From Escherichia coli 042 (GTDB lineage: Bacteria; Pseudomonadota; Gammaproteobacteria; Enterobacterales; Enterobacteriaceae): a stretch of DNA of 64,000 nucleotides. Made by a program: the position numbers and the translations under genes. The stretch's first letter is position 1, and the number at the start of each line of letters is the position of its first letter. This document shows positions 27,621-33,221 of this stretch, piece after piece. A model generated the notes under the pieces. The model was not told the DNA's origin and did no database searches. It saw only the letters and a list, made by a program, of their open reading frames with translations. Location: assembly GCF_000027125.1 (NCBI RefSeq), contig NC_017626.1; one strand, 5' to 3'.

Positions 27621-27667
27621 GTGAGGAAGACCGGGCGGGAAACTGCCCGGCCTGAACATACCTGAAT

Positions 27668-27804
27668 GGTTATCCCCGCTGACGCGGGGAACATAAGTTC
27701 GACAACTTAAAAAATGATAACAAGTCCGGTTTATCCCCGCTGATGCAGGGAACATAATAAAAACTTTAACTAGTTCGGTTTATCCCTGTTTTTACAAGGA
27801 ATAT
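27668..27804 (-). CRISPR. degenerate CRISPR remnant (CRISPR2.2-like): about 3 decayed repeats
   Basis: Decayed repeat copies at about 27668 (GGTTATCCCCGCTGACGCGGGGAACAT), 27727 (CGGTTTATCCCCGCTGATGCAGGGAACAT) and 27776 (CGGTTTATCCCTGTTTTTACAAGGAATAT); spacing 59 then 49 bp. Confidence 0.7.
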
Positions 27805-28257
27805 TAACTACACTCGATGTCTTTAGAATAAAAGACAATACGAATCGCACTTTATCAATTTTCACTTAAAGTATGAACTGGATATCTTTATTCATAAGAA
27901 CTATTCATCAACAGCGTATAGAGGCGATTATGTAAAATCACTCATTAGCCTCAAAACAAAGACAAATTTCCAGATTTATTACTTAATCAATGAATAATAA
28001 GCTTAAAAAATACACTGTTATTCTAAAGAAAAAATTAACAGGCATTAATTAATATTAAAAAAATAATATATTAAAATTTCTTAACGATTTAAGAATCATA
28101 CAAATAACACTTTGATTAAATTTAATTTTTTGTATCGATAATTGTGAACTTCTCTGGCATGGAGAACTATTTTGAACATGAGGTGTTACGTGGATATGTT
28201 GCTTATTACAAGTACTGCTAATATAAAAACTTGAGAAAGAGATAACGGGTTATATGG

Positions 28258-28408
28258 TGGTTTATCCCCGCTGGCGCGGGGAACTCTTGGCATAGGCGCT
28301 ATAGCGGCGCTCTGTGTCCGGTTTATCCCCGCTGACGTGGGGAACTCAAAGACAAATTTCTTTGTTCCTATGGCCAGACCGGTTTATCCCCGCTGGCGCG
28401 GGGAACTC
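28258..28408 (-). CRISPR. CRISPR array (CRISPR2.3-like): 3 repeats, 2 spacers
   Basis: Repeats at about 28258, 28319, 28380 with 61-bp period, consensus CGGTTTATCCCCGCTGGCGCGGGGAACTC; the middle repeat carries GACGTGGGG. Confidence 0.9.
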
Positions 28409-28500
28409 TCTAAACATAACCTATTATTAATTAATGATTTTTTAAGCCAGTCACAATCTACCAACTTTACAGTATCACACAAACAACACATCCATTATGT
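28409..28500 (-). promoter_or_regulatory. CRISPR leader for the 28258-28408 array
   Basis: AT-rich, abuts the terminal repeat, shares AAACATAAC and CAATCTACCAAC with the 2554-2649 leader. Confidence 0.65.
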
Positions 28501-29418: not shown

Positions 29419-29590
29419 AGCATTCTCTGTGAAGTGGATAATTGTTAATTATTGCAGATCCTGCCACAACAATCATGTCTTATTAACATTCTGTTACAGG
29501 CAGGTTTAAGGCAAAAAGTGGATGAGATCATAAAGAATAAAATGAAGCGGCGTATTATGTTTTAAGGAATTAATTAAAAGGGACATAGAC

Positions 29591-30193
29591 ATGCTCAGGA
29601 TATTCATCGTAATTATATTTATTGCCAATTTATCAGGCTGTGGATATAACGATATTCAAACCTATGATGAGCAGGTTAACGCCTCCTGGTCTGAGGTATT
29701 GAATCAATATCAACGTCGCGCCGATCTTATTCCTAATCTTGTCGCCAGTATTAAAGGTTATTCCAGCCATGAACAAGAGGTACTGGAAGCCGTAACATTG
29801 GCACGTAGCCAGGCTAATCGCGCCAGTAGCGATCTTCAGCAAGCTCCGGGAGATGCGCAAAAATTACAAGCCTGGCAACAAGCCCAGGCGCAGGTGTCTC
29901 GCACTCTCGGTCAGTTAACGATAATTAGTGAACGTTACCCTGATTTAAAAGCTCAGGAACTCTATCAAAATTTAATGGTACAGCTCGAAGGAAGTGAAAA
30001 TAGAATTGCCGTTGCGCGAGGAAGATATATTAAAGCCATTGAACAATATAATGTCACTATCCGCAAATTCCCCGCTGTATTAACCGCAAAGGTCATGGAT
30101 TACACACCGAAGAAAAATTATTTGCCGGATGACGTCGCAGCTGTGAGTAAAGCACCAATAATAGATTTTAGCCAGAATGCTAATGCGCATTAA
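29591..30193 (+). CDS. LemA-family protein, probable lipoprotein / membrane-anchored
   Basis: 200 aa; N-terminal hydrophobic segment with lipobox-like LSGC; LemA-like core (ASWSEVLNQYQRRADLIPNLVASIKGY...ERYPDLKA...QLEGSENRIAVARGRY...YN). AAGGGA SD. Confidence 0.85.
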   Translation: MLRIFIVIIFIANLSGCGYNDIQTYDEQVNASWSEVLNQYQRRADLIPNLVASIKGYSSHEQEVLEAVTLARSQANRASSDLQQAPGDAQKLQAWQQAQAQVSRTLGQLTIISERYPDLKAQELYQNLMVQLEGSENRIAVARGRYIKAIEQYNVTIRKFPAVLTAKVMDYTPKKNYLPDDVAAVSKAPIIDFSQNANAH

Positions 30194-30206
30194 GCGGGGA
30201 AGTTAT

Positions 30207-31100
30207 ATGCGAAATTTTATCTTCCTTATGGCTTTCTTCTGTTCATCTGTGTTTGCCACACAAATTCCAGTACCTGAATCACCCAGGTATGTGAATGACT
30301 TAACCGGCACATTGACAAACAGTGAAGTAAACACCCTGACCAACCAGATTAAAGCCCTGACGCAAAAAAACAACGCACAGTTGGTCGTGTTAGTGGTTGA
30401 AACAACAGGCGATGAAACCATCGAGCAGTACGCAACGCGGGTATTCGATAGCTGGAAACCGGGTGATAAAGACCGCGATGATGGCGTTCTACTGTTAGTC
30501 GCCTGGCAGGATAATACCGTGCGTATTGAAATTGGTTACGGACTGGAAGGTATTATTACGGATGCGCAGTCCGGGAAAATTATTCGCAACAGTATTATTC
30601 CGGCATTTAAAAAAGGCGACCTGGCTGGCGGTTTACAAAAGGGGATCAGCGATATTGAAAGTCGTCTGACGGGGAATAATTTAGCAACGATAACACCGAC
30701 CGATTACCCTTTGCCCTTTAGTGGTTGGTGGGCTTTGTTAGTCTGGGCGATAGTACTGACGTTTATTTCTGCCAGAGGATATGTCAAAACACTGGGACTA
30801 ATTTGCTTCGCAGCTATTGTACTGGCCTTTGTTTTACCTATAGCAGGTTTCAGCGGAAGCTGGGGAGTGCTCGCAACATTACTCTGCTTCGCCACACCGT
30901 TCCTGGCTGTCGCCATCGCTTTTACTCCCTTCGGCAAAAAGGTTCGGGATTCGATGCGTAATACCAACCAGCCATCACGCCATACAAGAAACAATTCTTC
31001 CTCCCACTATTCGTCATCGTCATCCTCTTCATTCGACAATGACAATTTCCGCGGTGGTGGCGGTTCATCTGGTGGCGGTGGCGCTTCCGGGCGCTGGTAA
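30207..31100 (+). CDS. TPM-domain membrane protein (YgcG-like), paralog 1, Gly/Ser-rich C-terminal tail
   Basis: Track ORF 30177..31100; start placed at MRNFIFLMAFFCSSVFA (signal peptide). TPM-like domain (LVVLVVETTGDETIEQYATRVFDSWKPGD...GVLLLVAWQDNTVRIEIGYGLEG), then TM segments, tail ...FRGGGGSSGGGGASGRW. Confidence 0.85.
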   Translation: MRNFIFLMAFFCSSVFATQIPVPESPRYVNDLTGTLTNSEVNTLTNQIKALTQKNNAQLVVLVVETTGDETIEQYATRVFDSWKPGDKDRDDGVLLLVAWQDNTVRIEIGYGLEGIITDAQSGKIIRNSIIPAFKKGDLAGGLQKGISDIESRLTGNNLATITPTDYPLPFSGWWALLVWAIVLTFISARGYVKTLGLICFAAIVLAFVLPIAGFSGSWGVLATLLCFATPFLAVAIAFTPFGKKVRDSMRNTNQPSRHTRNNSSSHYSSSSSSSFDNDNFRGGGGSSGGGGASGRW

Positions 31101-31114
31101 CAAAAGGAATTGAT

Positions 31115-32263
31115 ATGCGTATTTTTCTCTTACTTCTGATGCTATGCGGTTTTCAGGTATTCGCTGAACGATTGCCTTCAGTGACTGACTTAACCGGGAC
31201 ATTAACGACAGAAGAACAAAGTGCTTTAAATCAACAATTACAGACTCTCGAGCAGCAAAACCACTTCCAGGTGGCCGTGTTGGTTACGCCGACCACAGGG
31301 GGCAAAAATATTAAACTTGCAGCCTCGCAGAGCTACGGGTTATATCACTGGAAACCCGTTGGAGAGAAGCGATATGGCGAAGGAATCTTAATTCTCGTCC
31401 TCTGGCCGGAAGGGCTGGCGTCAATGAAGATTGGACATGGACTGGAACAGATGTTGCCGCCGGAACAAGCTGCACAAATTGTTCGTTACCATATGCAGCC
31501 AGAATTCGAAAAAAACAATCTCTTTGCTGGATTAACGGGCGGAATTGAAAGCATCGCACAGTTTACCCATATCAAAGCGAACCTTAGCCCTTTGGATGCT
31601 TTAGCCAATCATCTGTTTGCTAATCCGCAACGTTCGCTGCCATGTCTTGCCTGGACACTGCTGATGATCGTTGCCATCGTTGTCCTCTGGCGATTTGCCA
31701 GCCGCCCAGGGCGTGGCATATGGATGATATCGATGATTACCCCTATGGTCTGGTTTTTCTTCTTTCAGGACGATGTCATCATTCGGCGGGTGTCGATCGT
31801 TTGTTTTAGTTTATTGTTCGCAACAACCTGCTGGCAGCGTCTCGCGGTAGTTTTTAATATGTGCCGCGCATTTCCTATGATGCTGGCCCCCAAAAATAAA
31901 AACACTAAAGTGAAAAAACAAAAGAAGACTCCGCAGGTTCGTGAATCAGGACGAAATTCATTGTTTGTCGTGATGCTGATAATTATTGTGGGATGGTGCC
32001 TGGTGTTCGCCAGTAATAAAGATATTGCATTCATCTCAACAATTATTGGGCTAATTGATCATTTTATCGGCCCAATAACCATTGCTGGCATAGTTCTGCT
32101 GATCATTGTGGCCAAATTTACTGGCAATCTTAAACTGGGGTCAGGAGAAAAAAGCAACAGGAAAACGGGGAATCGTAATGCTCATTCTCGCTCTTCGTCG
32201 AGAAATTCTTTCCGCGGTGGTGGTGGTTCTTCAGGAGGCGGCGGTTCATCCGGACGCTGGTAA
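31115..32263 (+). CDS. TPM-domain-like membrane protein, divergent paralog 2 with extended polytopic region and Lys-rich loop
   Basis: 382 aa; signal peptide, degenerate TPM-like region (VAVLVTPTTGGKNIK...ILILVLWPEGLASMKIGHGLEQ), several hydrophobic helices, loop KNKNTKVKKQKK, tail ...FRGGGGSSGGGGSSGRW. Confidence 0.8.
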   Translation: MRIFLLLLMLCGFQVFAERLPSVTDLTGTLTTEEQSALNQQLQTLEQQNHFQVAVLVTPTTGGKNIKLAASQSYGLYHWKPVGEKRYGEGILILVLWPEGLASMKIGHGLEQMLPPEQAAQIVRYHMQPEFEKNNLFAGLTGGIESIAQFTHIKANLSPLDALANHLFANPQRSLPCLAWTLLMIVAIVVLWRFASRPGRGIWMISMITPMVWFFFFQDDVIIRRVSIVCFSLLFATTCWQRLAVVFNMCRAFPMMLAPKNKNTKVKKQKKTPQVRESGRNSLFVVMLIIIVGWCLVFASNKDIAFISTIIGLIDHFIGPITIAGIVLLIIVAKFTGNLKLGSGEKSNRKTGNRNAHSRSSSRNSFRGGGGSSGGGGSSGRW

Positions 32264-32268
32264 TCATT

Positions 32269-33162
32269 ATGCGCTTAATCTTTTTTCTACTTACTTTATG
32301 GTGCCTTCCTGGGCTTGCCCAGCAAATTGCTGTGCCGGAGCTGCGCCAACAGGTGACCGATATTACTGGTACGTTAAGCACGTCTGAACAACAATCACTG
32401 ACACAACAGCTGCAGGATATCACACAAAAAACACGGGCCCAGGTCGCCGTATTAATAGTGCCATCCACCGGAGACGATACCATTGAACAATATGCAACAC
32501 GCGTTTTTGATAGCTGGAAACTGGGAGATAAGCAGCGAAACGATGGTATTTTACTGCTGGTTGCCTGGGAAGATCATGCTGTCCGTATAGAAGTGGGCTA
32601 CGGGCTGGAAGGGGTGGTTACCGATCTGCAAGCAGCGAAGATTATCCGTAATATATTAATCCCAGCCTTCAAAAGTGATGACTTGATGGGTGGGTTAACA
32701 CTGGCAAGCGAAAATATCGGAGCGCTTCTGTTGAATGGTGAATTACCGGAAGACAGGGGGGATTATTACAGTATCAATCCCCCTATTCCATTATCGCTTG
32801 CTGTAATTATATTGCTGGCGGTACTTTCATATTTTATTGTTTTTACCGATCCGTCGAATTTACCCTGGATAGCACTGACTGGCGGAATTTATGGGATGGT
32901 ATTCCTCTATGTTGCCGAGCCAGGACCATGGACGAATTTAATCGTTGCCTGCGGTATGCTCACGCCTTTTGCTATCGTACCACTGGTTATTTTTTGGCTT
33001 ATCGTTAATAAAAAGCTACGCGCCAAATACAAAAAACTCAGTAAAGAAAGAGCTTCAAGAAAAGGTTCTTCTTCATCCTCTTCCGGTGGCGGCTCAAGTG
33101 GCGGCGGATTTAGCGGCGGGGGCGGTTCTTCTGGCGGTGGCGGCGCGTCCGGTCGCTGGTAA
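32269..33162 (+). CDS. TPM-domain membrane protein (YgcG-like), paralog 3
   Basis: 297 aa; signal peptide, TPM domain close to paralog 1 (AVLIVPSTGDDTIEQYATRVFDSWKLGDKQRNDGILLLVAWEDHAVRIEVGYGLEG), TM helices, tail ...GGGSSGGGFSGGGGSSGGGGASGRW. Possibly the ygcG ortholog; not certain. Confidence 0.85.
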   Translation: MRLIFFLLTLWCLPGLAQQIAVPELRQQVTDITGTLSTSEQQSLTQQLQDITQKTRAQVAVLIVPSTGDDTIEQYATRVFDSWKLGDKQRNDGILLLVAWEDHAVRIEVGYGLEGVVTDLQAAKIIRNILIPAFKSDDLMGGLTLASENIGALLLNGELPEDRGDYYSINPPIPLSLAVIILLAVLSYFIVFTDPSNLPWIALTGGIYGMVFLYVAEPGPWTNLIVACGMLTPFAIVPLVIFWLIVNKKLRAKYKKLSKERASRKGSSSSSSGGGSSGGGFSGGGGSSGGGGASGRW

Positions 33163-33171
33163 CTCAACCAT

Positions 33172-33202
33172 AAAAAATGCCAGCCCGAAGGCTGGCATTT
33201 TT
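33172..33202. terminator. bidirectional rho-independent terminator between the LemA-TPM cluster and eno
   Basis: AAAAAA-TGCCAGCC-CGAA-GGCTGGCA-TTTTT: perfect stem flanked by A-tract and T-tract. Confidence 0.8.
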
Positions 33203-33221
33203 AAATCAGATAAAGTCAGAC

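Follow-up and report, generated by a model that had tools for sequence, protein, structure and literature searches.

Why do three divergent proteins encoded side by side end in the same glycine-rich peptide? The question is raised by a 64,000-nucleotide stretch of Escherichia coli 042 DNA (contig NC_017626.1; the whole stretch is called the window below), in which a lemA gene is followed on the same strand by three TPM-domain genes, here named TPM1, TPM2, and TPM3 (Table 1). A preliminary description of the sequence had reported that the three TPM paralogs share a Gly/Ser-rich tail ending in SGRW. The tail was confirmed on three same-strand open reading frames (ORFs), and the nucleotide strings quoted for it are exact; the start assigned to the feature, position 30980, falls within the Ser-rich spacer of TPM1 and coincides with no gene boundary. 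The genes themselves are ordinary members of a known family: all three products match the PF04536 (TPM) hidden Markov model significantly, and their orthologues are labeled 'TPM domain-containing / YgcG family' in RefSeq. The motif at their C-termini appears to be an undescribed feature of these known genes, as no published description of it was found and a full-text search for motif strings returned only unrelated linkers.

The common C-terminal pattern of the three proteins is F[RS]GGGGSSGGGG[AS]SGRW-stop. Over the last 17 codons the paralogs are pairwise identical at 15–16 of 17 amino acids and at 39–42 of 51 nucleotides, and 7–9 of the identical tail residues in each pair are encoded by different codons. 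Amino acid identity between paralogs is 39–57% over the signal peptide and TPM domain, where TPM2 is 39% identical to each of the others in the domain; it is 24–29% over the membrane region and spacer, and 88–94% over the last 17 residues. At fourfold-degenerate sites under identical residues, the third base is shared at 9/28 positions in the tails and 16/83 in the TPM domain, as compared with the agreement of ~26% expected from the glycine codon frequencies in these genes. In the window, a degenerate DNA pattern for GGGG-[AS]-S-G-R-W-stop was found three times, as against none in 100 dinucleotide-preserving shuffles. Because the paralogs are divergent while their tails are nearly identical and the synonymous sites random, selection has acted at the protein level and not through gene conversion; both gene conversion and recent duplication are ruled out by these values. 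The codon comparison shows that the tail is kept by purifying selection on the protein, in three paralogs that are, to judge from their divergence, old. The preliminary description had drawn the same conclusion, which is further borne out by the recurrence of the tail in homologues retrieved without it and across five phyla, as described next.

Homologues were collected with phmmer using the TPM domain without its tail, which avoids circularity, against 1.84e9 cluster representatives, and 22,601 representatives (50% identity clusters) were matched. Among the best 150 of these, 115 end in tryptophan and 107 fit the strict motif; the remainder mostly have a truncated or frameshifted appearance, and a few contain several TPM domains and have a membrane helix at the C-terminus. 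In the logo of the 107 sequences, numbered backward from the C-terminus, position −17 is F, Y, or W in 75 sequences and −16 is S, G, or R; −15 to −12 are GGGG, −11 can be any residue, and −10 is S (63) or F (42). The second glycine run, from −9 to −6, is present in 105–107 sequences at each position, with G in 107/107 at −6, −7, −9, and also −12, and in 105 at −8. Position −5 is A in 93 and S in 14 (A/S in 107/107), −4 is S in 104, −3 is G in 89, and −1 is W in 104. Position −2 is variable (R 43, S 31, G 14, K 7, N 6, D 5). The consensus is [FYW]-[SGR]-G-G-G-G-x-[SF]-G-G-G-G-[A>S]-S-G-x-W-COOH, in which at least 13 of 17 positions are strictly conserved among the 50%-identity cluster representatives, and all 17 positions are fitted by all three window paralogs. 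The preliminary description had singled out a conserved terminal GRW. Its tryptophan stands, but GRW is the wrong core because the arginine at −2 is not conserved (R/S/G/K/N/D across the family), and the conserved unit is 17 residues long and not SGRW.

A second tail-less query, applied to one genome per GTDB species, returned 80 loci containing 74 tailed TPM ORFs. Named records with the tail include Enterococcus, Lactococcus, and Priestia (Bacillota), Bifidobacterium (Actinomycetota), Leptospira (Spirochaetota), Legionella, and Paracoccus; Bacteroides and Subdoligranulum have variants with a terminal F or H. The motif is thus found in at least five phyla: Pseudomonadota, Bacteroidota, Spirochaetota, Bacillota, and Actinomycetota. 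YgcG of the K-12 type (290 residues) is also tailed and ends GGGFSGGGGSSGGGGASGRW, and the Bizionia BA41 sequence of PDB 5ANP (277 residues) ends GGGFGGGGASGGW. The alignment across bacteria that the preliminary description had proposed therefore recovers the same motif with positional conservation; neither a motif confined to this locus nor a low-complexity tail was found. Mere low complexity is ruled out by the position-specific logo, the upstream spacer being free in length and charge, and the matches of the paralogs to the Pfam YxzE-like bacteriocin family are weak and were treated as compositional. As the alignments show, the three E. coli tails are copies of a family-wide, position-specific C-terminal motif of a membrane-anchored TPM subfamily (YgcG/BA41 type), a grouping defined in this analysis.

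The association of the motif with TPM genes was also examined from the opposite direction, by searching metagenome contigs with a bare DNA pattern for GGGG-A-x-G-x-W-stop in which the TPM domain was not used. TPM-domain ORFs account for 109 of the 123 in-frame pattern matches. Most of the non-TPM matches are contig-end cuts or frameshifted TPM genes (L105, L128), and two are chance matches in GC-rich DNA. Real exceptions are limited to two small helices-plus-tail proteins (L097, L138) and one secreted protein of 575 residues (L177). This search shows the motif to be almost exclusive to TPM-domain genes. DUF2207 proteins may also carry this tail; no member of that family was identified among the few pattern matches in non-TPM ORFs. 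The two small proteins, one encoded beside a lemA/TPM pair (L097) and the other alone (L138), consist of membrane helices and a glycine tail with no TPM domain, and from these examples the helix-plus-tail part may be a separable module. The L177 protein has a signal peptide but no membrane helix or TPM domain, ends FEGGQSGGGGASGSW, and is encoded away from any lemA or TPM gene; the tip may have been borrowed by a secreted protein, or the match may be due to chance.

The position of the tail within these proteins bears on where it could act. By inspection of the sequences, tailed TPM proteins begin with signal peptides or lipoboxes, and in every one examined at least one hydrophobic segment separates the TPM domain from the tail. 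The number of helices before the tail is one or three. Gram-positive forms, and many others, have one, and inspection of 10 automated 'two-helix' calls showed a third, weaker hydrophobic segment in each. The 20 residues past the last helix contain on average 2.7 K+R versus 0.6 D+E, as exemplified by the juxtamembrane basic stretch of TPM3, NKKLRAKYKKLSKERASRK. The spacer that follows has a median length of 36 residues (range 7–284) and is either Arg/Gly-rich or Ser/Asp-rich. Tailed TPM proteins thus have a linker-plus-tip layout, with a variable disordered linker and a conserved short C-terminal peptide, and the window paralogs share the remaining features of the subfamily (signal peptide or lipobox, TPM domain, at least one membrane helix, disordered spacer). 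Because the tail always comes after one or three membrane helices and a disordered spacer, we infer that it is cytoplasmic; the TPM domain would be exported, and the tail would be separated by the membrane from both LemA and the TPM domain of the same protein. Additional elements, such as a zinc ribbon or a helical region, are found between helix and tail in some forms: Cys4 zinc ribbons in Bacteroides (Bacteroides finegoldii, L204 2387–3304) and Paracoccus (Paracoccus ferrooxidans, L211 2372–3313), and a region of ~230 residues in Lactococcus. The Paracoccus ferrooxidans gene adjoins ppk2 (polyphosphate kinase 2), without lemA.

Structure prediction provides an indication of what the tail might contact. 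In the AlphaFold2 (AF2) model of full-length TPM3, the mean predicted local distance difference test score (pLDDT) is 80.8; the TPM domain scores 95–98, and helices span residues 175–192, 198–215, and 220–254. The spacer scores below 50, whereas the last seven residues score 93, with DSSP β-bridges at residues 284–285, 288, and 293–296. When residues 158–297 were modeled, a fragment that retains the helices but has no signal peptide or TPM domain, the tail scored ~55, the last three residues fell below 50, and no strands were present. AF2 therefore orders the motif only with the TPM domain present, and the simplest reading of the two models would be β-strand addition to the TPM sheet. The full-length model shows no barrel, just α-helical hydrophobic segments and the glycine tract, and an outer-membrane β-signal was rejected. 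By Foldseek, the closest structure to the TPM3 model is BA41 (5ANP; E 5e-11, target-normalized template modeling score 0.89). Further fold matches are 7TBR, 2KW7, 3PTJ, 8C7I, and 6ADQ_J, which include Rhom172_1776, PG0361, TLP18.3, Psb32, and a subunit of the mycobacterial respiratory supercomplex.

A second indication comes from the genes that accompany the tailed TPM gene. Among 200 loci, the commonest architecture (82) combines lemA, a tailed TPM gene, and a gene for a soluble TPM paralog that has neither tail nor signal peptide and resembles BA42, named TPMc here; lemA with a tailed TPM gene accounts for 43 loci and a tailed TPM gene alone for 20. When only the 138 loci with adequate flanks are considered, lemA and TPMc are both present in 82, lemA only in 41, neither in 13, and TPMc without lemA in 2. 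A lemA gene adjoins the tailed TPM gene in 123 of these 138, as it does in the window, where it lies immediately upstream on the same strand. TPMc is ~165 residues long, has no signal peptide or membrane helix, and carries a C-terminal NELPDxPVxL motif. Among PLSDB records, at least 27 of 34 TPMc matches lie within ~1.2 kb of a match to the tail-less TPM-domain query, the C-termini of these neighbors having been checked in Leptospira alone; about half of the records with a TPM match, including chromosome-sized E. coli and Proteus records, are without TPMc. No TPMc-type paralog is present in the window locus, all three paralogs there having signal peptides, membrane helices, and tails, and tblastn with a TPMc query gave no match in the chromosome-sized E. 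coli records of PLSDB. Three tandem tailed paralogs without TPMc were seen at just one other of the 200 loci, in the closely related E. albertii. Phenylalanine at position −10 of the motif is commoner when TPMc is present (69/83, versus 25/43 and 3/14), a difference that is phylogenetically confounded.

LemA, the third member, is a lipoprotein in the window (lipobox LSGC) and elsewhere has an N-terminal anchor; its helical domain is regarded as lying outside the cytoplasm (PMC3905215). As LemA would then be nearly without a cytoplasmic part, the tail would form the main cytoplasmic surface of the LemA/TPM membrane pair. A near-C-terminal motif, P-x-V-[DEK]-F, was also observed in LemA (APIIDF here, window 30140–30193; loci L003–L080), followed by a variable tail. 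Together with NELPDxPVxL of TPMc and the TPM tail, it gives all three members of the module a conserved short C-terminal motif. At one Legionella adelaidensis locus, the gene that follows lemA and the tailed TPM gene (L212 3100–3711) is annotated 'hypothetical'; its product has a TPMc-like start with a hydrophobic hairpin inside and may be a membrane-inserted TPMc variant.

From these observations we propose, tentatively and as a reading with appreciably less than even chances, that the tail serves as a tethered C-terminal peptide for docking on a TPM fold, that of the cytoplasmic paralog where one exists. The motif would be a conserved tip on a flexible leash that becomes ordered by docking, probably by β-strand addition. 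TPMc, encoded in the canonical operon of lemA, tailed TPM, and TPMc, would be the topologically reachable receptor; it is a candidate because it is operon-linked to the membrane pair and because the tail is nearly the sole cytoplasmic surface of that pair. Docking would connect the periplasmic LemA/TPM module with a cytoplasmic component. In E. coli, which has no TPMc, the tip would instead bind another cytoplasmic partner, the membrane surface, or other tails. A tail peptide such as FSGGGGSFGGGGASGRW would be a candidate ligand for TPMc or another TPM domain. A more elaborate version of this proposal, which we regard as unlikely, makes the tip the cytoplasmic docking peptide of a widespread but unrecognized three-component module across the inner membrane, in which LemA and the exported TPM domain sense or chaperone in the envelope and the tip captures or releases TPMc. 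If the three-component module were true, a glycine-rich C-terminal peptide would be the first defined ligand of the TPM fold, and a testable mechanism would be available for LemA and YgcG, two of the commonest 'unknown' envelope proteins.

Several observations weigh against docking on a cytoplasmic TPM fold. The motif is equally conserved without TPMc, in E. coli (both locus types), Proteus, Enterococcus, Lactococcus, Bifidobacterium, and the lemA-less 400-residue proteins of Pseudomonas, so an explanation by TPMc only is incomplete; TPMc as universal receptor was accordingly rejected as the full explanation, being absent from E. coli and from many Gram-positive loci. The contact partner of the tail is drawn solely from the comparison of AF2 models with and without the TPM domain, and these two runs differ in alignment depth (73 sequences for the full-length protein, 53 without the TPM domain). 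AF2 ignores the membrane, and its model, read literally, would have the tail touching the periplasmic TPM domain of the same protein, a contact incompatible with the inferred topology. The topology itself was derived from sequence rules, inspection, and AF2, and automated helix counters proved unreliable. Finally, L177 carries the tail on a secreted protein without any membrane helix. A tail specific to LemA was rejected separately, since the Pseudomonas and K-12-type proteins are tailed without lemA.

Persistence of the tail in the absence of both LemA and TPMc, as in K-12-type ygcG and the Pseudomonas 400-residue proteins, would fit a tail that needs no dedicated receptor. Its aromatics at −17, −10, and −1, split by GGGG turns, could lie on the inner-leaflet interface or pair with the tails of neighboring subunits as kinked, glycine-rich β segments, so that TPM proteins cluster through self-association or anchoring at the membrane surface. 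The fixed spacing of the recurring aromatics, the three tailed paralogs side by side in E. coli, and the existence of small helices-plus-tail proteins (L097, L138) are all in keeping with this explanation. It is nevertheless somewhat unlikely, as AF2 leaves the tail unstructured with the membrane helices alone, and near-invariance of A-S-G and of every glycine across phyla goes beyond the requirements of anchoring at the interface or of generic low-complexity pairing. A tail acting as a signal to some universal cytoplasmic machine, a housekeeping factor of all bacteria such as a quality-control protease (FtsH, Lon, or ClpXP) or an insertion or targeting factor, would likewise explain a motif that is conserved in every phylum sampled regardless of operon partners and that sits at the extreme C-terminus on a long disordered leash. 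Glycine-rich tracts are known from other systems to weaken the grip of AAA+ unfoldases, and the tail could equally be a 'slippery' anti-degradation tract. No bacterial degron or targeting signal is known to be similar to the tail, which counts against such a signal; moreover, it would be expected on many protein families, yet 109 of the 123 pattern matches are TPM genes, and it leaves the TPM-domain-dependent ordering of the tail by AF2 unexplained. This possibility is judged quite unlikely.

The AF2 comparison of full-length and TPM-deleted models, taken at face value, would place the tail in the periplasm, docked on its own or a neighboring TPM domain for autoinhibition or oligomerization, and one secreted, helix-free protein (L177) carries the tail. 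The hydrophobic segment between domain and tail in every tailed TPM protein, the common single-helix forms, the third weaker segment in all 10 inspected two-helix calls, and the basic residues and Cys4 zinc ribbons after the last helix all argue for the opposite side of the membrane, making a periplasmic tail highly improbable. Virtually no weight is given to the explanation that there is nothing specific to account for, the tail being a biased flexible linker or identity left over from duplication or gene conversion. A Gly/Ser-rich sequence is of low complexity, the weak compositional match to the YxzE-like family points the same way, and the corresponding region of YdjH has been termed a 'low-complexity segment' (PMC11237479); but with at least 13 of 17 positions strict, a spacer that varies, random synonymous sites, and a distribution over five phyla, this explanation is already refuted by the logo and the fourfold-site data.

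The preliminary description had suggested a sorting, anchoring, or interaction tag, a guess that is plausible but unproven. An interaction role would fit both the behavior of the tail in the AF2 models and the operon context, and a sorting role is not supported, because the layout is unlike that of any known C-terminal sorting signal and the membrane helices precede the motif. LPXTG/sortase, PEP-CTERM/exosortase, and GlyGly-CTERM/rhombosortase signals and the C-terminal domain of type IX secretion substrates are also family-marking C-terminal elements, and GlyGly-CTERM also contains glycines. In these, the motif precedes a membrane helix and a basic cluster, or the element is a folded β-sandwich, whereas in the TPM proteins the helices and basic cluster come first and the protein ends at the tryptophan. 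No sorting enzyme is conserved near the tailed TPM genes (200 loci, 138 of them adequately flanked), and a sortase, exosortase, or rhombosortase signal was rejected since the order of elements is reversed. A closer functional analogy, which implies no family assignment, is offered by the C-terminal tip of SSB (...DDDIPF) and the C-terminal peptide of FtsZ, in which a variable linker is joined to a short conserved partner-recruiting peptide. The linker-plus-tip logic is alike, with a spacer of 7–284 residues and a tip of 17 residues in the TPM proteins; unlike the SSB and FtsZ tips, the TPM tip is almost pure glycine, has a terminal tryptophan, and is tethered to a membrane.

Two Bizionia argentinensis proteins of known structure are close relatives of the tailed TPM proteins and of TPMc. 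BA41 (5ANP) and K-12 YgcG have the same architecture and tail as the window TPM proteins, which differ from them in forming three tailed paralogs in tandem. The BA41 crystal models the TPM domain alone (140–145 residues), and its tail is not described as a motif in the literature searched. BA42 (2LT2, 2MPB, 4OA3) is a stand-alone TPM protein and the orthologue of TPMc (E 3e-39 for the Bacteroidota-type TPMc match), with which it shares a C-terminal ...ELPN... motif; neither the E. coli locus nor the E. coli records searched contain it. In the part of its literature considered here, BA42 is treated as an isolated phosphatase-like domain, and no test of a BA41–BA42 interaction was found in the literature search. 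Psb32/TLP18.3 and the TPM-like subunit of the mycobacterial CIII2CIV2 supercomplex share the TPM fold; they are attached to membrane complexes, with the fold outside the cytoplasm at an energy-transducing membrane. They are distant in sequence (15–21% identity), and the NCBIfam Psb32 and MamQ models score far below their cutoffs.

TPM (YgcG) and LemA proteins occur very widely (the TPM domain by itself matched the 22,601 cluster representatives above), and their function is unsettled. A 2025 preprint counts six solved TPM structures with no consensus function, and comparative-genomics papers doubt the claim of phosphatase activity and propose a chaperone-like role in assembling membrane complexes (PMC11237479; PMC12419801); the first of these mentions just the segment after the TPM domain of YdjH cited above. 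The tail, which structural and comparative-genomics work has treated as low complexity, is conserved more highly than any other part of these proteins apart from the TPM fold. It provides a clean sequence signature separating the membrane-anchored subfamily from other TPM proteins and a small, synthesizable handle for finding partners. It also gives a concrete hypothesis joining the periplasmic and cytoplasmic members of the lemA/TPM operon, for which crystal and nuclear magnetic resonance structures of BA41 and BA42 already exist separately.

Table 1. Coordinates of the lemA/TPM locus and its C-terminal motifs in the window.
Feature	Position	Strand	Description
lemA	29591..30193	+	ORF for LemA-family lipoprotein, lipobox LSGC; RefSeq orthologue 'LemA family protein'
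TPM paralog 1 (TPM1)	30207..31100	+	Signal peptide, TPM domain, three hydrophobic helices, Ser-rich spacer, tail; PF04536 E 1.5e-40
TPM paralog 2 (TPM2)	31115..32263	+	382 residues, most divergent, longer membrane region; PF04536 E 3.4e-21
TPM paralog 3 (TPM3)	32269..33162	+	eno-adjacent slot, equivalent to the ygcG position in K-12-type genomes; PF04536 E 9.2e-39
TPM1 17-residue C-terminal motif FRGGGGSSGGGGASGRW	31047..31097	+	Followed by TAA; fits the family logo
TPM2 17-residue C-terminal motif FRGGGGSSGGGGSSGRW	32210..32260	+	Followed by TAA
TPM3 17-residue C-terminal motif FSGGGGSSGGGGASGRW	33109..33159	+	Followed by TAA
TPM3 low-complexity Gly/Ser spacer	33064..33108	+	From basic juxtamembrane stretch to motif; AF2 pLDDT < 50, residues 253–279
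GC-rich hairpin GCCAGCC-cgaa-GGCTGGC	33177..33205		A and T runs on flanks; between TPM3 and convergent eno; read from sequence

The order of genes around the locus is ygcE, remnants of clustered regularly interspaced short palindromic repeats (CRISPR), queE (− strand), lemA and the three TPM-domain genes (+ strand), and then eno, pyrG, and mazG (− strand). The best NCBIfam match of the lemA product, MamQ, is under the cutoff. The longest ORF for TPM1 begins at 30177 and overlaps lemA by 17 nucleotides; the ATG at 30207 is the likelier start, as it is preceded by GGGGAAG and yields a normal signal peptide, MRNFIFLMAFFCSSVFA. The hairpin downstream of TPM3 is probably a bidirectional terminator that closes the operon, and was missing from the output of a consensus scan of the window.

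A 3.9-kb query around the tails has a partial match in 5425 of 5426 complete E. coli genomes, and in 1101 at least 80% of the query is matched. The gap between queE and eno (window 29420–33220) is polymorphic in the species: lemA and three TPM genes are present in those 1101 of the 5426 genomes, most strains have a single ygcG, often together with yqcG, some have lemA and a TPM pseudogene, and strain CH4796 has an insertion of IS4. The first TPM gene of O157:H7 strain Z1504 has an annotated length of just 675 nucleotides (224 residues) and is therefore without the tail. Between ygcE and queE, at window 27663–28420, two small clusters of degenerate type I-E CRISPR repeats (GGTTTATCCCCGCTGGCGCGGGGAAC) with 61-nucleotide spacing resemble what is left of a decayed array immediately upstream of the locus, and a CRISPR array is annotated at the same site in a related genome.

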